64,000 nt of DNA from contig JBBQLB010000012.1 in assembly GCA_038327465.1 (NCBI GenBank), positions 5,550 through 69,549 on the forward strand, written 5' to 3'. This document shows positions 4,770-48,667 of the stretch, piece by piece (position 1 is the first letter of the stretch; every line of letters begins with the position of its first letter). Position numbers and translations under genes: made by a program. This stretch comes from Sphingomonadales bacterium (lineage in GTDB: Bacteria > Pseudomonadota > Alphaproteobacteria > Sphingomonadales > Sphingomonadaceae). The notes below the pieces were generated by a model, which worked only from the letters and a program-made list of their open reading frames with translations, was not told the DNA's origin and did no database searches.

Positions 4770-4846
4770 TGGCAGGGGAGCTCGGACTCGAACCGAGGGC
4801 CTTCGGTTTTGGAGACCGACGCTCTAACCAACTGAGCTACACCCCT
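4770..4846 (-). tRNA. trpT: tRNA-Trp (CCA)
   Basis: Reverse complement AGGGGTGTAGCTCAGTTGGTTAGAGCGTCGGTCTCCAAAACCGAAGGCCCTCGGTTCGAGTCCGAGCTCCCCTGCCA: cloverleaf, CCA anticodon, encoded 3' CCA, classic position before secE-nusG. Confidence 0.97.
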
Positions 4847-4892: not shown

Positions 4893-7250
4893 TTACGCAG
4901 CCGCGCGGTCGCCCCAGTTGCGGTGGGCGAGGGTGCGCGCTTCGGCAACGGGCAACGGGCGGCCGAAATAATAGCCCTGCACTTTGGTACAGCCGAGATC
5001 CTGCACCATGCGGTGTTCGTCCTCGGTCTCGACCCCTTCGGCGGTGGTCGCCATGCCGAGGCTCTGCGCCAGCGCGACGACCGCGCGGATGATCGCGATC
5101 GCCTCGGGCACCTTTTTCGAGGCGCCGATGACGAAGCTGCGGTCGATCTTGATCGTCGAGAATTTGGTGCGGCTGAGATAGCCGAGCGAGGAATAGCCCG
5201 TACCGAAATCGTCGAGGCTGAGGCGGACGCCGAGCCCGAGGATACGCTCCAGCACCTTCACCGCGCCGGTGTCGTCGCGCATGAACACGCTTTCGGTGAC
5301 TTCGAGCTCGAGCCGACTGGCGGGCAGACCGCTATTGGCCAGCGCCGAGGCGACGATCGCGACGAAGCCGGGATTGTGCAATTGTTCGGGCGAAACGTTG
5401 ACCGCGACGCGCGTTTGGCCGGGCCAGGTCGCGGCCTCGGCACAGGCCGAGCGCAGCACCCATTCGCCGATCGGCGCGATCAGCCGCGCATCCTCGGCGA
5501 GCGGGATGAATTTTGCGGGCGAGATCGAGCCAAGCTCGGGATGCGTCCAGCGCACCAGCGCTTCGAACCCTTTCAGGCGTCCGGTGCCGGCATCGACCAC
5601 GGGCTGATAATGCACGTCGAGCTCGTCATTGCTGAGCGCCTTGCGCAGCGCCTGTTCGAGCACGCGGCGTTCCTCGGCCGCGACGTGCAATTGCGGTTCG
5701 TAGCAATGGTACATGCCGCCGCTCTGATCCTTCGAGCGATAGAGCGCGAGGTCGGCCGACCGGATCAGCATCTCGGCGGTCGCGCCATCGCGCGGGCCGA
5801 ACGCGACGCCGACACTCGCGCCGGTGTAGAGCGTGTGCTGATCGAGGTCATAGGGTTTGGCGAGCGTATCGACGATCGTCTGCGCGAGCCGCTCGACGCG
5901 CGCGCTGTCGCTCGCATCGCGCACGACCACCGCGAATTCGTCACCGCCCAAACGCCCGATCAGCTCATTCTCGGTCATCAGCGCGGCGAGCCGTTCGGAG
6001 ACGCGGCCAAGCAGCCGATCGCCGATCGGATGGCCGAGCGAATCATTGACCGCCTTGAAGCGATCGAGATCGATCATCATGAAGGCGCAGCGGCTGTTCC
6101 ATTTGGTCGCATCGGCCATCGCGCGCGCCAGCGTTTCGTTGATGTGCAGCCGGTTGGGCAGGCCGGTCAGCGTATCGAAGCGCGCCATCCGGTTGATCTT
6201 GTCGGCCGATGCGCGTTGCTCGGTCACATCCGATCCGACCCCGCGAAAGCCGATAAATGCGCCGCGCTCGTCGACCCGCGGGTTCGCCGCGATTTCGAAC
6301 CAGCGCTCGGTCTCGTCGATCCGCACCGGCAGCAGCACGTCGCGAAACGCCACACGCCCCTTCAGATGCTCGCCCAGCGTGCGCAGGCCCGCCGCGAAAT
6401 TCCCGGCTTCCCACGTCGGCCCGGCGAGCACTTCGAGCAGCGACTTGCCATTGATGCTGACGGGATCAAGCCCGACCGAATGCGCGAAACGCGGCGAGGC
6501 GCGCACCACGCGGCGCGCGGCATCGGTTTCCCACAGCCAATCGGCACTATGATCCTGCGCCTCGCGCAGTAGCAAGCTGACGGTCTCGTCGCGTTCGGCC
6601 AGCGCGATTTCGCCCGCGCGGATCACAACGAGCGCGCGCGCGCGGGTAAAGCAGCCGATCATCAGCAGGGACGTAAACAGCAGCACCGCCGCACTCAACA
6701 CCGGCCCGCCGACGAAGAACAGCATCGTCGCGATCGCCGCGCCGAGAATCCCGAGGAAACTGAGCGTCGCCAGCGGCAGCGCCGCCATCGCGACGGCCGA
6801 TGCGGTCATCAACACCGACAGCACGATCCACAGCCCGAGCGCGGTATTGGTATCGGCGGTAACGCCAAAGGCGAGCGGCGGCACCGACCAGATCGCCGCG
6901 AGCGCGATCCCCTCCAGCACCGTATCGCGCACATCGCCCAAGGACGCGCTGCTCGCGGCGCGGTGGCGCGCGGCGAGGCGACGGAAGGTAATCGTCAGCG
7001 CAACCGCCGCGACGACCGCACCCCAGCTCGCCATCATCCACAGCGGCGCGGCACGTTCGAGAATCAGCGTAACCAGCGCCGCCGCGACGACATTGGCCGC
7101 GAGCAGGAACACAGCAAGCTGGCTCCCGGCATGCAATTGCGCCGCGCGGATCGGCGCCCAATCGGTCGTATCCGCCGGATCGTACAGCCCGAGCAAAGCC
7201 CTGGTGTCGATCCGCGGCATGGCGAATTGGGAGGTCGGTTCGGTGCTCAC
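4893..7250 (-). CDS. Membrane-bound PAS-GGDEF-EAL diguanylate cyclase/phosphodiesterase
   Basis: Multiple N-terminal TM helices, PAS-like region (WLWETD), intact GGDEF, EAL and DDFGTGYSS motifs. Confidence 0.93.
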   Translation of the reverse strand: MSTEPTSQFAMPRIDTRALLGLYDPADTTDWAPIRAAQLHAGSQLAVFLLAANVVAAALVTLILERAAPLWMMASWGAVVAAVALTITFRRLAARHRAASSASLGDVRDTVLEGIALAAIWSVPPLAFGVTADTNTALGLWIVLSVLMTASAVAMAALPLATLSFLGILGAAIATMLFFVGGPVLSAAVLLFTSLLMIGCFTRARALVVIRAGEIALAERDETVSLLLREAQDHSADWLWETDAARRVVRASPRFAHSVGLDPVSINGKSLLEVLAGPTWEAGNFAAGLRTLGEHLKGRVAFRDVLLPVRIDETERWFEIAANPRVDERGAFIGFRGVGSDVTEQRASADKINRMARFDTLTGLPNRLHINETLARAMADATKWNSRCAFMMIDLDRFKAVNDSLGHPIGDRLLGRVSERLAALMTENELIGRLGGDEFAVVVRDASDSARVERLAQTIVDTLAKPYDLDQHTLYTGASVGVAFGPRDGATAEMLIRSADLALYRSKDQSGGMYHCYEPQLHVAAEERRVLEQALRKALSNDELDVHYQPVVDAGTGRLKGFEALVRWTHPELGSISPAKFIPLAEDARLIAPIGEWVLRSACAEAATWPGQTRVAVNVSPEQLHNPGFVAIVASALANSGLPASRLELEVTESVFMRDDTGAVKVLERILGLGVRLSLDDFGTGYSSLGYLSRTKFSTIKIDRSFVIGASKKVPEAIAIIRAVVALAQSLGMATTAEGVETEDEHRMVQDLGCTKVQGYYFGRPLPVAEARTLAHRNWGDRAAA

Positions 7251-23982: not shown

Positions 23983-24091
23983 CGTCACCCCGGACTTGAT
24001 CCGGGGCCCATGCCGCGGCTTGACGCCTCGCTTGAAATCTCTTGCGCTTCGCTCGCTGCACGATGGGCCCCGGATCAAGTCCGGGGTGACG
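23983..24091. repeat. CGTC-tagged palindromic (REP/RPE-like) element, intergenic
   Basis: Perfect 29-bp inverted repeat CGTCACCCCGGACTTGATCCGGGGCCCAT (23983-24011 / 24063-24091); each arm is itself a hairpin. Confidence 0.9.
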
Positions 24092-25505: not shown

Positions 25506-26575
25506 TGCTTTACCTTCTGGCCGATTATCTGGGTTTTCCGGGCATTTTGAACCTGATCCGGTATCAGAGCTTCCGCACTGGCGCTGCGGTCGCGACGTCG
25601 CTGTTCCTCGGGCTGCTGATCGGCCCGCGCTTCATCGGGTGGCTGCGCGTGCGGCAGGGCAAGGGCCAGCCGATCCGCGCCGATGGCCCGCAATCGCACT
25701 TCGCCAAGCGCGGCACACCGACAATGGGCGGGCTGATGATCCTCACCGCGATGGTGTTTTCGATCCTGTTGTGGATGGATTTGTTGAGCCCCTATGTCTG
25801 GGCCTGCACCTTCGTGACCTTGGGCTTCGGCGCGATCGGCTTCCTCGATGATTTCGACAAGGTGCGCAAAGCGAGCACCGCGGGCGTGTCGAGCCGTTTG
25901 CGGCTGATCGGTGAATTCGCGATCGCCGGGATCGCGGCGACGCTGATCGTGCAGCAAAACGGCACGCATCTGTACCTGCCCTTTTATACCGGGTCGGTGA
26001 TCGATCTCGGCTATTTCTACATCGTTTTCGCCGCCTTCACGATCGTCGCGTTCGGCAATGCGGTGAATTTGACTGATGGGCTGGACGGGCTCGCGACGAT
26101 GCCGGTGATTATCGCCAGCGTCGCGTTCATGCTGATCGTCTATCTGGTCGGGCGCGCCGATTATGCGCATTATCTCGGCATTCCGCACGTGCCGCACGCG
26201 GGCGATCTGGCGATCTTCTGTGGCGCGATCGTGGGGGCGGGGCTCGCCTTCCTGTGGTTCAACGCGCCGCCGGCCGCCGTGTTCATGGGCGATACCGGGA
26301 GCCTCGCGCTTGGCGGTGCGCTCGGCACGATTGCGGTCGTCGCGCATCATGAAATCGTGCTCGGCATCATCGGCGGGCTGTTCGTGGTCGAGGCGGTGAG
26401 CGTCATCGTCCAGGTCTTCTGGTATAAGCGCACCGGGCGCCGCGTGTTCAAGATGGCGCCGATCCACCACCATTTCGAACAGCTCGGCTGGAGCGAACCG
26501 ACCGTGGTGATCCGCTTCTGGATCATCGCGATCGTGCTCGCACTGGCTGGTCTGTCGACGTTGAAACTCAGGTGA
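25505..26575 (+). CDS. mraY: Phospho-MurNAc-pentapeptide transferase
   Basis: [38 protein letters not shown]. Confidence 0.98.
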
Positions 26576-27936
26576 TCGTGTCGCCAACCTGGGCGGGCAA
26601 GCGCTATGCTGTGCTCGGGTTGGCGCGCTCGGGTGCGGCGAGCGTGCGCGCGCTGGTGGCGGGCGGGGCCGAAGTCACAGCCTGGGATGCTGACGAAAAC
26701 AAGCGAGACGCCATCGCCACCATGTTCTCCGGCGAAGGCCGGAGCCCAGGGTTGCCAAGCGCGTCATCCGAAGCCCTGGGCCCCGGCCTTCGCCGGGGAA
26801 CGGTTGCGCTTGAGGATATCCAAATTCTCGAGATCACCGGTTTCGACGCCCTCATCGTCTCCCCCGGCGTCCCGCTCAATCGTCACCCGGTTGCGGCGAA
26901 GGCGCGCGCGGCGGGGGTCCCGATCATCGGCGACATCGAACTGTTCGCCCAAGCCCGCGCATCCCTACCCCCGCACAAGGTCGTCGGCGTGACGGGCACG
27001 AACGGCAAATCCACCACCGTCTCGCTGATCCACCACATCCTGCAAACCGCCGGCATACCCTCCCGGCTCGGCGGCAATATCGGTCTGCCGATCCTTGAGC
27101 AGGAACCCCTCCCCGAAGGCGGCGTGTACGTGCTCGAACTGTCGAGCTATCAGATCGACCTGACCTTCACCCTCGATTGCGATGTCGCGGTGTTGCTCAA
27201 CATCACGCCCGATCATCTCGACCGCTATGACGGGTTCGAGGCGTACGCTGCGTCCAAAGCCCGGCTGTTTGCGATGCAGTCCAAGGACCACATTGCGATC
27301 ATCGGGATCGGCGACACGCCCTCGGCGCAAATCGCGCGCAGGCTTTCGGCGAAGGGCGAATATCTCACCAAGATCGCGCCCGGCGTGTGCATGGTGCAGC
27401 CGCTGTCGCCGAGCCTGAAAGGACCGCACAATTTGCAAAATGCGCTTGCGGCGATCAACGTCTGCGAGGCGCTGGGTGTGCCGCACGCGGCGATCGATGC
27501 CGGCCTGCTAAGCTTTTCCGGCCTGCCGCACCGGATGGAGCGCGTCGCGACCAAGCACGGCGTTGCGTTCGTCAACGACAGCAAGGCGACCAACCCCGAA
27601 TCGACCGCACCCGCGCTGGCGGCGTTCGAGCGGATCCACTGGATCCTCGGCGGGCAGGCGAAGAGCGACGATCTTGATGCCTGCGCGCCGAGCTTCGGCC
27701 GGGTCGTGCGCGCCTATACGATCGGCGCGTCCGGCGCGAGATTTGCCGAGATTCTGCACGGGAAAGTCCCGGTCGAGGAGAGCGGCGATCTCGCCACAGC
27801 CGTGGCCGCCGCCGCCGCGCATGCGCAGGCCGGGGACACCGTTTTGCTCTCGCCCGCCTGCGCTTCGTTCGACCAGTTCCGTGATTTCGAGGATCGCGGC
27901 GACCAGTTCCGCGCTCTGGTGGAGGCGCTCGCATGA
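26572..27936 (+). CDS. murD: UDP-MurNAc-L-Ala--D-Glu ligase (with in-frame palindromic insert)
   Basis: [46 protein letters not shown]. Confidence 0.96.
26724..26801. repeat. Palindromic element inserted in frame in murD
   Basis: Arms GTTCTCCGGCGAAGGCCGGAGCCCA / TGGGCCCCGGCCTTCGCCGGGGAAC; 78 nt = 26 codons. Confidence 0.88.
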
Positions 27937-29171
27937 ACGCCCCCACCCCGAAATTGTGGAAAAGCATGCAGGGGCGCGGCGGTCGCGGTGACCGGTCGGC
28001 GCTGGGCATGTGGTTCTGGGATATCGATCGGATGCTGCTGCTGCTGACGCTGCTGCTCATCGCGGTCGGGCTGATCGCGGTCGGGGCGGCCTCGCCCGCG
28101 GCGGCGACACGCTATTCCGATGGCAAGCATATCGTGCCGCCGCTTTTCTATTTGTGGTGGCAGTTGCTCTGGGTCGGCGTGTCGCTGCCGGTGCTGCTAA
28201 TCGTGTCGATGCTGCCGGTGCCGCTCGCGCGGCGCCTCGCGCTGTTCGGGACGGTTGCGTGCCTGATCCTGCTGATGCTGGTGCCGGTGATCGGGGTGGA
28301 GAAAAATGGCGCGACGCGCTGGCTCAATTTCGGCATTTCGCTGCTGCAACCGTCCGAATTCCTCAAACCCTTCTTCATCGTCACGGTGGCGTGGCTACTG
28401 TCGATGCGCGCGCAGGACGATGCGTTGCCGGTGGTGACGATTACCGGCGGGATGACGGCGCTGGTCGCGGTGCTGCTAATGTTGCAGCCCGATTTCGGGC
28501 AGACCGTGGTGTTCTGCGCGGTATGGATGGCGTTGCTGATGATATCGGGCACGTCGCCCCGGATCATGGTCGGGCTGATCGCCGCCGTTCCCGCCGGATT
28601 GCTCGCCGCCTATCTGTTCTACGGCACGGCGCGCGCGCGGATCAACGCCTTCCTGTTTCCCGAGGCCGAGGGGATTGGTGCAGCCGACCATTTCCAGACC
28701 AATGCCGCACACGACACGATCACGGCGGGTGGCTGGCGCGGGACCGGGCCGGGCGGCGGATCGATGAAGTTCCGCCTGCCCGAGGGGCATACCGATTATA
28801 TCTTTTCGGTGATCGGCGAGGAATTCGGGCTGATCGCCTGCGTCGTCATCGCGATGCTGTTCCTGGCAATCGTGGTGCGGGTGTTCGTCAAATTGCTCGA
28901 CGAACAGGATGAATTCCGCCTGTTCGCCGCCGCTGGCCTCGCCACGCAATTCGGCGTGCAGGCGCTGATTTCGATGGCGGTGAATACCGGCCTTGCCCCG
29001 TCCAAGGGCATGACATTGCCCTTCATCAGCTATGGCGGGTCGTCGCTGATCGCGCTGTCGATCGGCATGGGGTTGCTGTTGGCCTTCACGCGGCGCAATC
29101 CGTTCGTTACGCGCTCCAAATACATTGCGCGCTCGGGGGCGCAATCAGGGGCGCATCGGAGCGGGATATGA
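27933..29171 (+). CDS. ftsW: Peptidoglycan polymerase FtsW
   Basis: NGATRWL, LQPSEFLKP, LQPDFG, PEGHTDYIFSVIGEEFG, KGMTLPFISYGGSS. Confidence 0.97.
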   Translation: MNAPTPKLWKSMQGRGGRGDRSALGMWFWDIDRMLLLLTLLLIAVGLIAVGAASPAAATRYSDGKHIVPPLFYLWWQLLWVGVSLPVLLIVSMLPVPLARRLALFGTVACLILLMLVPVIGVEKNGATRWLNFGISLLQPSEFLKPFFIVTVAWLLSMRAQDDALPVVTITGGMTALVAVLLMLQPDFGQTVVFCAVWMALLMISGTSPRIMVGLIAAVPAGLLAAYLFYGTARARINAFLFPEAEGIGAADHFQTNAAHDTITAGGWRGTGPGGGSMKFRLPEGHTDYIFSVIGEEFGLIACVVIAMLFLAIVVRVFVKLLDEQDEFRLFAAAGLATQFGVQALISMAVNTGLAPSKGMTLPFISYGGSSLIALSIGMGLLLAFTRRNPFVTRSKYIARSGAQSGAHRSGI

Positions 29172-30328
29172 TGGCGAAACATTTCGTATTGGCGGCGGGT
29201 GGGACTGGCGGCCACATGGTTCCGGCAGCGGCATTGGCAACCGAGCTGATCAAGCGCGGGCACCATGTTGCCCTGGTCAGCGATGAGCGGGGAGTGCGCT
29301 TTCCCGGCCTGTTCGAGGGAATCGAGACACATATCCTGCCCGCCGGACGGTTGGGCGGCGGGCCGATCGGCTATGCCAAGGCGGCGGCGGCGATGCTGAA
29401 GGGCCGCGCCATGGCGATCCGGCTGTACAAGGGCTTCCGGCCCGATGCGGTGATCGGTTTCGGCGGCTATCCCGCCCTTCCGGCGTTGCTGGGCGCATTC
29501 AACCGGGGCATTCCGACGGCGGTGCACGAACAGAATGCCGTGCTTGGCCGCGTCAACCGGCTGGTCGCGGGCAAGGTCAGTGCGATCGCGACCTCCTATG
29601 CCGATGTCCAGCGGCTATCCCCCAAGCATCGCGGCAAGACGCATCTGATCGGCAATCCGGTGCGTGATGCGGTGCTGGCACTCCGCAGCAAACCCTATCC
29701 GCTGCTGGAGGAGGACGGCATTTTCCGCGTGCTGGTAACCGGCGGCAGTCAGGGCGCGAGCGTGCTCAGCCAGGTCGTGCCCGATGGCCTTTCGCTGTTG
29801 CCGGTCGCGTTCCGGCGGCGCTTGCAAGTGACGCACCAGGCGCGGATCGAGGATATCGACGCCTGCCGCGCGAAATATAAGGAACTCGATATCGCGGCAG
29901 ATCTCGCCACCTATCTGCCCGATATGCCCGAACAATTGGCCTGGGCGCATCTGGTGATCGCGCGTGCAGGCGCCTCGACGCTGGCGGAACTGACGTGCGC
30001 GGGGCGGCCAGCGATCCTGGTGCCGTTGCCCAGCGCGACCGACGACCACCAGACCGCGAATGCCAAGGAGATGACCTCGGCCGGGGGCGCGCGGACGATC
30101 GACCAGCGCAGCTTCACGCCGGTCGAACTCGCCAAGCAAATGCAGCGATTGGGGCTCGATCCCGCAGCGCTCCAAAATGCGGCGGCGCGCGCGCGGGCGT
30201 GCGGGCGGCCCGATGCCGCGCGTGATCTGGCCGATCTGGTCGAGAGTTTGGGCGATACGACCGGGGATATGCCGATCGGGGCGGCGCACCCCACGGGCTT
30301 TTCGATGGGCGCGGCGGTACCGGCATGA
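29168..30328 (+). CDS. murG: Undecaprenyldiphospho-MurNAc-pentapeptide GlcNAc transferase
   Basis: AGGTGGH, GFGGY, HEQN, GNPVR, TGGSQGA, RAGAST..E. Confidence 0.97.
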
Positions 30329-31728
30329 GAGGTGTCGCAACCGATATCGGCACGATCCATTTCGTCGGCATCGGCGGCATCGGCATGTCGGGCATTGCCG
30401 AGGTGATGAAGAATCTCGGCTATGCGGTGCAGGGCTCCGACGTGGCCGAGGGCTATGTCGTCGAGGGCTTGCGCGCCAAAGGGATCAAGGTCCTGATCGG
30501 GCATCATGCCGACAATCTCGGCGATGCGGCGGTGATCGTCACCTCGACCGCGATCAAGCGCGGTAACCCGGAAGTCGAGGCGGCGCTCGAACGCCGCATC
30601 CCGGTGGTGCGGCGCGCGGAAATGCTCGCCGAGCTGATGCGGCTGAAATCGACCGTCGCGATTGCGGGCACGCACGGCAAGACCACCACAACCAGCATGG
30701 TCGCGGCGCTGCTCGATGCCGGCGGCGTCGATCCGACCGTCATCAACGGCGGGATCATCAACAGTTACGGGTCGAACGCGCGATTGGGCGCGAGCGACTG
30801 GATGGTGGTCGAGGCCGACGAGAGCGACGGGAGTTTCCTGCGATTGGACGGCACGATCGCGGTCGTCACCAATATCGATCCCGAGCATCTCGACCATTAT
30901 GGGTCGTTCGATGCGGTGAAGGATGCGTTCGTCGAGTTCGTCGAGAATGTGCCCTTCTACGGCGCGGCGCTCCTGTGCCTCGATCACCCCGAAGTGCAGA
31001 ACATCCTCCCGCGCGTGCGCGACCGGCGCGTCGTGACCTACGGCTTTTCGGCGCAATCCGACGTGCGCGGCGTCAACGTAACCCCAATCCCCGGCGGCAA
31101 CCGCTTCGAAGTGATCGTCCGCGACCGCGACGGGACCAGCCGATCGATCGAAGGGATCGAAATGCCGATGCCGGGGCGGCACAATGTCCAGAACGCGCTG
31201 GCGGCGATCGGCGTGGCGCTGGAGCTGGGCATCGATGACGCGACGATCCAGCAGGGTTTCGCCAAGTTCGGCGGTGTGAAGCGGCGCTTCACCAAGGTGG
31301 GCGAGACCGGTGGCGTCACGATCATCGACGATTACGGCCATCACCCGGTCGAAATCCGCGCGGTGCTGTCCGCCGCGCGCGAGGGCGTCGAAAATCGCGT
31401 GATCGCGGTGGTACAACCGCATCGCTACTCGCGGCTCGGTGATTTGATGGAGGAGTTTCAGGGCGCGTTCAACGATGCCGACATGGTGTTCGTGGCACCG
31501 GTTTTTGCGGCGGGCGAGGCACCGGTCGAAGGCGTCGATGCCGAGGCATTGGTCGAGGGGATCAAGCGCCGCGGGCATCGCTCAGCGGCGACGATCGCCG
31601 ATGCGGGCGCGCTCGCGGCGGCGCTGGCGGGCGTGGTGCAGCCGGGGGATATGGTCGTCTGCTTGGGGGCAGGGGATATTACGAAATGGGCGGCCGGCTT
31701 GGCGGCTGGGATTGAGGCGGTGCGATGA
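30325..31728 (+). CDS. murC: UDP-MurNAc--L-alanine ligase
   Basis: [42 protein letters not shown]. Confidence 0.98.
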
Positions 31729-32864
31729 GCGTGCGCGCAACCTCAATCCTCCCCGGAACGGGGAGGGGGACCAGCGAAGCTGGTGGAGGGGGCGCGCCGC
31801 TGGGCGCATCACCTGTGGCAACCCCCCTCCACCATTTGCCGGAAGAGGCAAATGCGTTTGAGCGAGATGGTGTCCCCCGGACACCATCTTGGACTGCCGG
31901 GGGCAGTCCAAAGCTCAAACGCCCTCCCCGTGCCGGGGAGGATTTGCGCGCTCGCGGCCGTCTCACCCAAAACGCCCCCCTCGCCCCACTCGTCTGGTTC
32001 AAATCGGGTGGCACAGCGGAGTGGCTGTTCGAACCCAAGGACATCGCCGACCTAAGCGCCTTCCTCGCCGCACTCGACCCCGCGACCCCCATTCTCCCGC
32101 TCGGCCTCGGCTCGAACATGATCGTCCGCGACGGCGGCGTGCCCGGCGTCGTGATCCGCCTCGGCAAACCGTTCGCCAAGGTCGAAGCGATCGATGCAAC
32201 GACCTTGCGCTGCGGCGGCGGCGCGAGCGGGATCCTCGTCTCCTCGACTGCACGCGATGCCGGGATTGGCGGGGTGGAATTCCTGCGCTCCATCCCCGGC
32301 ACGGTTGGCGGCTTCGTGCGGATGAATGGTGGCGCTTATGGGCGCGAGACGCGCGACATTCTGGTGGAATGCGACATCGTCCTGCGCTCGGGCGAGCGCC
32401 AGACATTGCCGGTCGAGGCGCTTGGCTACACCTATCGCCATTCGATCCTGCCCGATGGCTGCGTCGTCGTCGGCGCGACCTTTCGGGGGCACGTCGAAGA
32501 GTCTGCAGTGATCCAGGCCGAGATGGACCGCATCGCCGCCGCGCGCGAGGAATCGCAGCCGCTGCGCAGCCGCACGGGCGGATCGACCTTCAAGAATCCT
32601 GATGGCCACAAGGCATGGGAACTGATCGATGCCGCCGGGTGCCGGGGCCTCAGGATCGGCGATGCGCAAGTGAGCGAGAAGCATTGCAACTTCCTGCTCA
32701 ACCTCGGGAACGCGACGAGCGCCGAGATCGAAGCGCTCGGCGAACAGGTGCGTGCGCGCGTGCTGGCGCATTCCGGCGTGACGTTGGAGTGGGAAATTCA
32801 GCGGGTGGGTGAAAATCTCCCTCTCCCCCTTGGGGGAGAGGGTCGGGGAGAGGGGCAGTCATGA
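31725..32864 (+). CDS. murB: UDP-N-acetylenolpyruvoylglucosamine reductase (repeat-derived N- and C-terminal additions)
   Basis: [48 protein letters not shown]. Confidence 0.95.
31746..31943. repeat. Composite palindromic element in frame within the murB 5' end
   Basis: Outer arms ATCCTCCCCGGAACGGGGAGG / CCCTCCCCGTGCCGGGGAGGAT plus several internal perfect hairpins; 198 nt = 66 codons. Confidence 0.85.
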
Positions 32865-32938
32865 GCGCCACGTCACGGACTGCCCCTCTCCCGACCTCGC
32901 TGCGCTCGGCCACCCTCTCCCCCAAGGGGGAGAGGGAA
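32816..32938. repeat. Palindromic element spanning the murB stop / ddl start
   Basis: CCCTCTCCCCC-TT-GGGGGAGAGGG and CCCTCTCCCCC-AA-GGGGGAGAGGG arms; inner 15-bp IR 32846-32860 / 32878-32892 encloses the ATGA overlap. Confidence 0.88.
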
Positions 32939-33853
32939 AAGCTCCACGTCGCAGTCTTGATGGGTGGCTGGTCAGCCGAACGCGAGGTTTCGCTATCCTC
33001 GGGCGCGGGCGTTGCCGATGCGTGCGCGAGCCTCGGTCACCGCGTGACGCGGATCGACATGGGGCGTGACGTCGCGGCAAAGCTCGCCGAAGCCGCGCCC
33101 GACATCGTGTTCAACGCGCTCCACGGCACGCCGGGGGAAGACGGGTCGGTGCAGGGCATGCTCGATCTGATGGGTCTGAAATACACGCATTCGGGCCTCG
33201 CCACCTCGGTCATCGCGATCGACAAAGTGCTCACCAAATTGCTGCTGGTCCCCGCTGGCATTCCCATGCCGAGCGGTCGCATCGTCAAGTCGGCGAACCT
33301 CTATGAGGGCGATCCGTTGCCGCGCCCTTATGTGTTGAAACCGGTCAATGAAGGCTCGTCGGTCGGCGTCGCGATTGTCACCGCCGAGGGCAATTACGGC
33401 AACCCGATCGCGCGCACCACGCCCGGCCCGTGGACCGAGTTCGAGGAGCTGCTCGCCGAGCCCTATATCCGCGGGCGCGAATTGACGACGGCGGTGCTGG
33501 GCGACACTGCGCTCGGCGTCACCGAGCTGCGGCCCAAATCGGGCTGGTACGATTACCAATCGAAATATACCGACGGGATGACCGAACATATCTTCCCCGC
33601 CGATATTCCCGATGAGATCACCGCGGCATGCAAGCGCATCGCGCTCGAGGCGCATCGCTTGCTCGGCTGCAAGGGCACGTCGCGATCGGATTTTCGCTGG
33701 GACGATGCGGCCGGGATCGACGGCCTGTTCCTGCTCGAGGTCAATACCCAGCCGGGCATGACGCCGCTCAGCCTGGTGCCCGAACAAGCGCGGCACCTCG
33801 GAATTTCCTATCCGCAGCTCGTCCAAACCATCCTTGATGAGGCCCTTTCATGA
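32861..33853 (+). CDS. ddl: D-alanine--D-alanine ligase
   Basis: MGGWSAEREVS, NALHG..GEDG, KPVNEGSS, EVNTQPGMT..SL.P. Confidence 0.96.
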   Translation: MSATSRTAPLPTSLRSATLSPKGEREKLHVAVLMGGWSAEREVSLSSGAGVADACASLGHRVTRIDMGRDVAAKLAEAAPDIVFNALHGTPGEDGSVQGMLDLMGLKYTHSGLATSVIAIDKVLTKLLLVPAGIPMPSGRIVKSANLYEGDPLPRPYVLKPVNEGSSVGVAIVTAEGNYGNPIARTTPGPWTEFEELLAEPYIRGRELTTAVLGDTALGVTELRPKSGWYDYQSKYTDGMTEHIFPADIPDEITAACKRIALEAHRLLGCKGTSRSDFRWDDAAGIDGLFLLEVNTQPGMTPLSLVPEQARHLGISYPQLVQTILDEALS

Positions 33854-48596: not shown

Positions 48597-48667
48597 TGTC
48601 ATCCCCGCGAAAGCGGGGACCCATCTGCGGCGGCAGGTGATGGGTCCCCGCTTTCGCGGGGATGACA
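48597..48667. repeat. TGTC-tagged palindromic (RPE/REP-like) element, intergenic
   Basis: Perfect 29-bp IR TGTCATCCCCGCGAAAGCGGGGACCCATC (48597-48625 / 48639-48667). Confidence 0.9.

Follow-up and report, generated by a model that had tools for sequence, protein, structure and literature searches.

The window analysed here (i.e. 64,000 nt of contig JBBQLB010000012.1, positions 5,550 to 69,549, from the Sphingomonadales bacterium assembly GCA_038327465.1) carries a high-G+C dcw (division and cell wall) cluster containing murD, (ftsW), murG, murC, murB, ddl and ftsQ. The start codon of murB at 31725 overlaps the murC stop codon (ATGA, with the murC TGA at 31726–31728). The murB open reading frame (ORF) encodes the leader MSVRATS and then a stop-free insert of 198 nt (i.e. 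66 codons, 31746–31943) before resuming the MurB sequence. Judged by its relatives, this insert is a selfish palindromic repeat belonging to a multi-copy family of the Sphingomonadaceae, and the comparisons described below argue strongly that ribosomes read through it, yielding a MurB protein with an N-terminal extension. Residues 8–73 of the ORF product are element-derived, a second element contributes the final ~17 residues, and the Pfam domains FAD_binding_4 and MurB_C begin at about residue 79. The closest MurB genes are those of Sphingomonas, with identities of 84% in species genomes and of up to 91% in a protein collection. Exact look-ups of MurB and MurC from the window gave no entry in the collection searched, which does not include the source genome. 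Features of the locus are collected in Table 1.

Table 1. Features of the murB locus and of the nested-palindromic insert, in window coordinates
Feature	Position	Strand	Remarks
murG	29168-30328		
murC (UDP-N-acetylmuramate-L-alanine ligase)	30325..31728	+	homologs aligned in 77 loci
murB ORF, 379 codons	31725..32864	+	Pfam PF01565, PF02873
MurB leader MSVRATS, seven codons	31725..31745	+	ancestral MurB N-terminus
Nested-palindromic element, 198 nt	31746..31943	.	probable nuclease-deleted miniature of a Sphingomonadaceae DUF559 cassette
Left terminal hairpin CCTCCCCG-GAA-CGGGGAGG	31748..31766	.	encodes LPGTGRG, a match to the DUF559 N-tail
Inner hairpin ACCAGC-GAA-GCTGGT, GNA triloop	31770..31784	.	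sequence variable across the family
Central stem GGTGGAGGGGG ... CCCCCTCCACC, 30-nt centre 31793-31822	31782..31833	.	centre opens with CGCGCCGC, as does the DUF559 coding region in full-length copies
Right inner hairpin CATTTGCC-GGAAGA-GGCAAATG, subfamily marker	31833..31854	.	encodes HLPEEAN, as in DUF559 C-tails
67-nt block in place of GTCC	31855..31921	.	closing stem CGTTTGAGC/GCTCAAACG, twin perfect hairpins, CCC and GGG loops
Right terminal hairpin CCTCCCCG-TGC-CGGGGAGG	31923..31941	.	encodes PPRAGE; holds Shine-Dalgarno-like GGAGGA
In-frame TTG	31944..31946	+	sole possible start downstream of the element; 1 nt past GGAGGA
Second nested palindrome, other family (CCCTCTCCCCC type), murB/ddl junction	32818..32937	.	
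ddl	32861-33853		

Architecture and reading frame of the murB insert

The structure of the insert was examined by an inverted-repeat search and by folding, which together recovered all of the features listed in the original prediction. The outer arms (31745–31767 and 31922–31944) are 23 nt long with a complementarity of 96%, and the terminal-hairpin pattern occurs twice in the window as compared to 0.04 expected occurrences. RNA folding of 31740–31950 gave −146.3 kcal/mol versus −91.7 ± 4.9 kcal/mol for 200 dinucleotide shuffles (z = −11.2), none of which was as good. The predicted fold consists of a long outer stem, three arms (i.e. ACCAGC-GAA-GCTGGT, GGTGGAGGGGG/CCCCCTCCACC and CATTTGCC/GGCAAATG) and a three-way junction that is closed by CGTTTGAGC/GCTCAAACG and carries two perfect hairpins (31865–31889, 11 bp; 31889–31911, 10 bp). 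With its flank included, the closing stem of the junction reads GCGTTTGAGC/GCTCAAACGC at 31854–31863 and 31913–31922.

The murC–murB junction was compared in 77 Sphingomonadaceae loci. An empty site, which the original prediction had proposed to define from relatives, was present in ~25 of these loci, with the murB start overlapping the murC stop and an N-terminus of the form M-x5-6-LPxVRGKLT. Removal of 31746–31943 joins MSVRATS to LRARGRLT and restores the length of empty-site N-termini such as MSLAETLPVVRGKLT. Another ~30 loci have spacers of ~205–217 nt, which were considered as candidate copies of the same element and rejected as they hold a conserved small gene of 64–66 codons (MSDWFSTAIEMQREILRAQKAQ...WQQWTKLWGWK; L001, L004, L009, L011, L012 and ~25 more); this gene is translationally coupled on both sides and is absent from the window. 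The remaining junctions are occupied by palindromic inserts, which fall into at least four families. The family of the window copy was found at murC–murB in L008, L019, L014, L037, L038, L061, L063 and L065, as a solo hairpin in L032, and also at the murB–ddl and murG–murC junctions of other Sphingomonadaceae. Of these loci, L008 belongs to Sphingomonas citricola RHCKR47 and L038 to S. floccifaciens. The closest MurB relatives (P0124, P0125, P0127 and P0136; 86–90% identity) possess another palindromic family at the same N-terminal site (SPLPLAGGAGGGP...PPLTPPASGRG), indicating that this site is a hot spot that several families have hit independently. Other types of insert were also observed: the MurB N-terminus of L048 has an in-frame tandem repeat of SAQASPH units in place of a palindrome, and L049, L056 and L074 carry a gene of ~165–190 codons with overlapping start and stop codons at the murB–ddl junction.

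In fifteen of the murC–murB loci, the murC-overlapping start is separated from the conserved core by an insert, which is open and in frame in every case. In L006, L007 and L008 there is no in-frame start other than the murC-overlapping one, making read-through obligatory in these loci. The murB-fused copies of the family (n = 7) have lengths of 123, 132 (four copies), 138 and 198 nt, all of which are multiples of three. An orthologous contig from another study (L183; 89% and 85% identity in the murC and murB flanks, respectively) carries an element that is likewise of 198 nt and lies at the same codon, after MSRGATS. Three length differences separate the L183 and window elements, namely +63 nt for the right arm, +60 nt for the left arm and +3 nt for the centre. 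That all three are multiples of three argues for selection on the frame along the entire element, in agreement with the original prediction; the chance of three in-frame indels is 1/27 for this pair alone.

Threading of palindromes by ORFs was assessed in a set of 80 related dcw loci, the majority of which hold palindromic inserts at their dcw junctions. Nearly every junction palindrome was found to be threaded, either as an in-frame fusion or by a bridge mini-ORF that runs through the element, from an RTG overlapping the upstream stop to the start of the next gene. Approximately 29 of 34 bridge mini-ORFs end on RTGA or TGATG, and four more end on ATGNNTGA. The chance expectation is ~0.26 per case (1/3 for the frame × 0.77 for a stop-free frame), giving a binomial P of 7e-13 for cases that are not phylogenetically independent; even ten independent events would give P = 1e-6. 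Most family copies at dcw junctions start exactly 18 nt past the upstream RTG, and the window copy starts 21 nt past it. A fixed 18-nt leader after RTGA was considered as a part of the mobile unit and discarded, as it fails in an unbiased sample and the leader sequences are not conserved; at a guess, the 18-nt distance reflects a ribosome-footprint limit plus deletion bias.

Public MurB annotations of 319–365 amino acids include extensions of this kind (e.g. S. radiodurans). An AlphaFold2 model of the window protein, built with a 40-sequence alignment, has a folded core (mean predicted local distance difference test score, pLDDT, of 68.6), and values of <50 were obtained for residues 1–63 and 360–379. 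Residues 1–63 are predicted to form a disordered Gly/Pro-rich extension.

A multi-copy family and its candidate DUF559 parent

The insert belongs to a family of ATCCTCCCCG nested palindromes, which was defined in this analysis and for which 91 copies were collected. Copies are present in many different genomic contexts: in addition to the dcw loci, a pattern scan of IMG/VR gave 83 further loci and, in the source metagenome, the left arm reaches a depth of ~1650x as compared to 5–10x for the flanks. The 91 copies have a constant plan, consisting of ATCCTCCCCG-nnn-CGGGGAGG, GGGACC or TGGC, a variable perfect hairpin, GGTGGAGGGG or GACGGAGGGG, a variable centre and the mirror image of the left side. 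Terminal hairpins (CCTCCCCG-nnn-CGGGGAGG) within ATCC...GGAT were found at both ends of the window copy, as in the 91 collected copies, together with inner variable hairpins with GGGACC/GGT flanks and the core stem GGTGGAGGGG...CCCCTCCACC (31770–31784, 31782–31833 and 31833–31854). Inner hairpins of 168 half-arms have 75 distinct stems, mostly of 5–7 perfect bp, and their loops are mainly GAA (49), GCA (44), GGA (9) and GTA (6). C-G-closed GNA triloops are a very stable DNA mini-hairpin motif.

Metagenome contigs were scanned for the subfamily marker CATTTGCCGGAAGAGGCAAATG, giving five loci. In L168 and L169, a DUF559 gene (PF04480, E = 9e-29) is located between the same arms, which are spaced by ~360 nt. 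This full-length form is a cassette of ~460 nt, composed of a left nested-palindromic arm, a gene for a DUF559 protein (i.e. a Vsr-like PD-(D/E)XK nuclease) and a right arm. A DUF559 domain is present between the arms in L168–L182; the centre of the window copy is only 30 nt long and has no such domain, so this copy is a derivative and not a full member. The cassette ORF begins with a TTG or ATG that overlaps the upstream stop, and its own stop falls on the ATG of the next gene. Within this ORF, the left arm is translated as an N-tail identical to residues 8–25 of the window protein, followed by the nuclease domain and by the right arm as a C-tail. The arms of the window copy are those that flank DUF559 genes, and they lie in the same reading frame.

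A protein search detected 1508 DUF559 relatives, mostly from Sphingomonas. Both the N-tail and the C-tail (ARPLHH..GPPPRAGED) are conserved in 32 aligned DUF559 proteins, with the arms kept as translated tails across proteins of 58–84% identity. A search with the translated insert and its flanks returned 14 candidates, none of which was significant, and the tails alone are too short for such a search. Cassettes were located at three operon junctions (i.e. pntAA/pntAB, glyQ/glyS and the beta/alpha junction of the biotin carboxylase subunit genes), with arms that are identical at the DNA level and with a start and stop that overlap or abut the stop and start of the neighbouring genes at all three. 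The centre of the window copy retains CGCGCCGC, the start of the DUF559 coding region, and that of L183 retains its end, AAR before PLHH. The window element is probably a DUF559 cassette minus its nuclease core, i.e. a non-autonomous derivative resembling a MITE (miniature inverted-repeat transposable element), with the centre of 31782–31833 as the putative site of the deleted core. No description of such a cassette was found among the searched papers that mention DUF559. For VsrA, a DUF559 protein of Caulobacter, a role as a mismatch-repair nuclease has been proposed (PMC12907096).

These observations suggest how the insert could be carried by an essential gene. The cassette sits at translationally coupled operon junctions, and the window copy, having probably lost its nuclease core, lies past codon 7 of murB. 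Because the 66-codon element is stop-free, ribosomes starting at the murC-coupled ATG at 31725 would read through it and produce an extended MurB. The insert may be tolerated through a combination of its start 21 nt past the start codon, which would place it outside the footprint of the initiating ribosome, the preservation of the reading frame and an apparently dispensable MurB N-terminus upstream of RGRLT. Mobilisation presumably occurs via a DUF559 nuclease supplied in trans, or by recombination or gene conversion.

The 67-nt block in the right arm was examined separately. Block-less right arms read GGCAAATG-GTCC-CCCTCCCCG in five metagenome loci and in a 94-nt contig of the source run, as anticipated from the observation that GTCC would restore symmetry at this position with a net gain of 63 nt; the same loci identify the block as a nested addition replacing GTCC. 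The block-bearing right arm was also found in other genomic contexts at 85–99% identity, including a 1292-nt contig of the same metagenome (14 differences, with compensatory pairs at 31892/31908, 31893/31907 and 31894/31906), a lichen metagenome (3 differences) and another organism (1 difference). The composite has thus spread as a unit or by gene conversion, and did not originate from a further insertion within murB. L183 has a block-less right arm, and its left arm holds a homologous block in reverse complement, with a compensated 2-nt indel in one hairpin. Copies elsewhere and the mirror image in L183 make the suggested serial insertion into murB unlikely, and indicate that the block belongs to the dynamics of the element itself. 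By this comparison, the block appears to be a secondary module that belongs to the element and is carried by a subfamily of copies; arm-to-arm copying or loss within a symmetric ancestor is its favoured origin.

A comparison of the block hairpins across 179 loci detected no further copy of this block sequence. Analogous twin-hairpin modules, with a closing stem, CCC-loop and GGG-loop hairpins but unrelated stems, were present in the left arm of L130 and in L119, and partially in L124. In L119, a twin perfect hairpin (GGATCGTCC-CCC-GGACGATCC then TGAGCATGCC-GGG-GGCATGCTCA; 5386–5430) lies outside any family element and, given this copy, the CCC/GGG twin-hairpin module may be a class of its own. 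A viral-contig scan for the closing stems of the block gave L164, a single chance match that is unrelated.

Weighing of alternative explanations

Several observations weigh against a translated insert of cassette origin. Stop-free frames account for 77% of frames in unbiased G+C-rich copies, so openness alone is a weak indicator of translation and was down-weighted. No clear target-site duplication and no transposition or homing event was seen; the flanks are just AT...AT or A...T, which also extend the palindrome, and the loci compared include no filled/empty pair from one lineage. There is no DUF559 gene within the 64-kb window, the pnt-locus DUF559 copies are vertically inherited orthologs and not fresh insertions, and the direction of descent from cassette to miniature was deduced from just three cassette loci. 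Gene callers set the MurB start at the V of VRGRLT in some relatives, indicating that the extension is not needed for function, and the TTG at 31944, which directly follows the element and is conserved among the window, L183 and L065, is a possible start. With initiation at this TTG, the element would be an upstream leader, the ORF from ATG 31725 would just deliver ribosomes by translational coupling or stay untranslated, and mature MurB would lack the extension. The TTG directly follows GGGGAGGA; bridge-type relatives utilize the right-arm GGAGGA as a Shine-Dalgarno sequence for a start 2–5 nt past GGAT; L032 seemingly uses GGAGGA + 7 nt + GTG; and MurB annotations from (V/M)RGRLT exist. However, GGAGGA and TTG are separated by 1 nt, which is much too short for a functional Shine-Dalgarno spacing, GGAGGA is base-paired within a 12+10-bp stem (the terminal hairpin), and copies of the same family in the same place in L008, L019, L061, L063 and L038 are not followed by a start codon. 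Each indel between the window and L183 is a multiple of three, although other lengths would be acceptable in a bridge ORF, and, as the TTG is in frame with ATG 31725, read-through would yield the long form anyway. An internal start is accordingly judged to be improbable. A mis-joined or mis-sized contig across the repeated arm is far more improbable still. The window sequence turns up almost solely in one sediment metagenome, with an own-genome depth of ~3.5x, and independent contigs from that run end within the repeated left arm at 31775–31802, where depth is ~1650x, so that the exact length of the element hinges on a 28-nt join in one contig. Against such an artefact, independent contigs join murC to the left arm (31453–31774, 0 differences) and join the centre, block and right arm to murB (31803–32131), and the element of the orthologous contig from the other study matches it in both length and codon position.

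Descent could also have run in the opposite direction, with the miniature palindrome as the primary mobile unit and DUF559 as cargo that at one time became inserted into the centre of a copy, in which case the window element is not a deletion derivative. Miniatures far outnumber full-length copies in the sampled loci, the centres vary between copies and can take up further inserts (e.g. twin-hairpin blocks), and the DUF559 gene of the pnt locus is an old, vertically inherited resident. However, arm-DUF559-arm has the same joints (i.e. GGGG-AP-R... and ...AARPLHH) at three unrelated operon junctions, indicating that it moved as a whole unit, while miniature centres retain the first and last codons of the DUF559 ORF and the arms are conserved as translated tails in proteins of 58–84% identity. 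Deletion from a cassette is preferred, with a cargo origin being less likely and, taken by itself, a rather unlikely course of events. An RNA function was considered as well, in which the element has been exapted as a cis-acting RNA that tunes murB by slowing ribosomes, by stabilising or processing dcw mRNA or by sequestering GGAGGA. The extremely stable fold, the frequency of palindromic inserts at dcw junctions of the 80 related loci and the Shine-Dalgarno-like motif at the 3' end are consistent with this function, and repetitive extragenic palindromic (REP) elements near stop codons reportedly affect translation (Liang, Rudd and Deutscher 2015). In contrast, sense and antisense folds of 26 copies of known transcriptional orientation differed by a mean of only +0.6 kcal/mol (p = 0.54) with 60 versus 64 G-U pairs, i.e. 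without a G-U excess; such equal folds reflect the symmetry of a DNA palindrome and give no sign of transcript-level selection, which was rejected on this comparison. The same family occupies many unrelated contexts, the closest MurB relatives (86–91% identity) have another family or nothing at the site, the inner loops are GNA triloops typical of DNA hairpins, and a search of the window against Rfam 15, at the gathering score and at a permissive E-value, gave no element match and only sub-threshold hairpin noise. The structured RNA controlling dcw translation that had been raised in the original prediction found no support in the unrelated contexts, strand symmetry or Rfam results, and a cis-acting role of this kind is considered to have little chance of being correct.

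Neighbouring palindromes and relation to known repeats

Palindromes of other families were observed elsewhere in the window. The murB stop and ddl ATG (ATGA, 32861–32864) lie at the centre of the CCCTCTCCCCC-type palindrome, the halves of which are translated as a MurB C-tail and a Ddl N-tail; this family also reads through at the murB/ddl junction in L015, L025 and L073. A 78-nt nested palindrome of another family (GTTCTCCGGCGAAGGCCGGAGCCCAGGG...; 26724–26801) adds 26 codons in frame inside murD (ORF 26572–27936) and is an internal in-frame insert in an essential enzyme. It falls between ...KRDAIATM and VALEDIQ, and the alignment to solved MurD structures resumes just past it (query residue 73 = E. 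coli residue 51). Two perfect nested palindromes with CGTC- or TGTC-headed arms (23983–24091, CGTCACCCCGGACTTGATCCGGGGCCCAT; 48597–48667, TGTCATCCCCGCGAAAGCGGGGACCCATC) form a separate family and look like CGTC-tagged REP-type repeats, the former being located in the 145-nt murE–murF spacer with no obvious ORF threading. A tRNA gene at 4773–4846 (−) is the sole gathering-score Rfam match in the window.

Palindromic repeats lying in frame in protein genes have been described as Rickettsia palindromic elements (RPEs; Ogata et al. 2000 via PMC10969869). As outlined in that account, the shared properties are a multi-copy palindrome of ~100–200 nt, an in-frame position in unrelated or essential genes and carriage as extra peptide segments. 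In-frame palindromic repeats were found here in the MurB N-terminus, across the MurB C-terminus and Ddl N-terminus and as the internal MurD insert, and the original prediction of an RPE-like element within the MurB N-terminus holds, with 66 stop-free codons following codon 7. The likeness drawn here is one of arrangement. The host is a free-living, high-G+C Sphingomonas as opposed to an obligate intracellular Rickettsia, the Sphingomonas family has a full-length DUF559 partner with the arms serving as the translated tails of the nuclease, and most copies are situated at gene junctions and not inside genes.

Mycobacterial interspersed repetitive units (MIRUs) are reported to insert at operon start codons, with the ends of a small ORF overlapping the flanking stop and start (−4 nt) and coupling being kept (Supply et al. 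1997 via PMC12548453). An ORF overlapping both the flanking stop and the flanking start, as summarised there, was also found in the bridge state of the relatives, whereas the window copy keeps the upstream ATGA overlap and is fused downstream. In the same summary, MIRUs appear as 46–101-bp tandem direct repeats without nested palindromes or a known nuclease partner; the present family has only single palindromic units and no tandem direct-repeat (variable number tandem repeat, VNTR) organisation. As with MITEs, the element is small and multicopy, has terminal inverted repeats (ATCCTCCCCG...CGGGGAGGAT) and would derive from a longer coding element by internal deletion, but its AT...AT flanks are ambiguous as a target-site duplication and its coding partner is a PD-(D/E)XK (Vsr/DUF559) nuclease, from a family with no known transposase activity. 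The Vsr/DUF559 clade includes a homing endonuclease (I-Bth0305I; PMC3424549), and such homing endonuclease genes, which are free-standing or intron-borne, resemble the cassette in being small nuclease genes of the same clade between or within host genes with little disturbance of expression; the cassette differs in having no intron or intein context. REP sequences and bacterial interspersed mosaic elements (BIMEs), with their REP-associated tyrosine transposases (RAYTs), are likewise G+C-rich extragenic palindromes that lie at the ends of genes in operons and may affect mRNA and translation, whereas the window element is much longer, nested and apparently translated. Membership of the REP/RAYT group was rejected, as the ends are ATCCTCCCCG, the unit is 120–200 nt and the GTAG or CGTC head on a 20–40-bp palindrome, by which PMC3733652 characterises this group, is lacking. 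The element is RPE-like when fused and MIRU-like in the bridge state of its relatives, and is a member of neither family. What is new here is a candidate DUF559 parent whose arms are translated, together with the almost universal threading of dcw junctions by ORFs and a block in mirror image.

In-frame selfish palindromes in essential genes are best known from Rickettsia and are here common in free-living Sphingomonas, with the cell-wall enzymes MurB, Ddl and MurD all having element-derived segments within one window. The element persists in the essential murB gene because its reading frame stays open. A rule emerges whereby inserts at coupled operon junctions survive only if threaded by an ORF, through fusion or a bridge, extending the MIRU observation to another phylum and to another kind of repeat. 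For annotation, start calls for MurB, Ddl and DUF559 proteins vary in these genomes, and repeat-derived tails go unrecognised in database proteins. A bolder and decidedly tentative proposal is that the DUF559 cassette is an undescribed selfish element, an 'operon-junction parasite', which would insert at overlapping stop/start codons, express its nuclease by translational coupling and hand the ribosome on to the next host gene. Its arms would act both as mobilisation substrates and as translated linkers, with miniatures colonising the first codons of essential genes and hairpin modules being copied from arm to arm by intrastrand templating in multiples of three. The cassette, as a candidate parent, gives the large and uncharacterised DUF559 family a testable selfish role.

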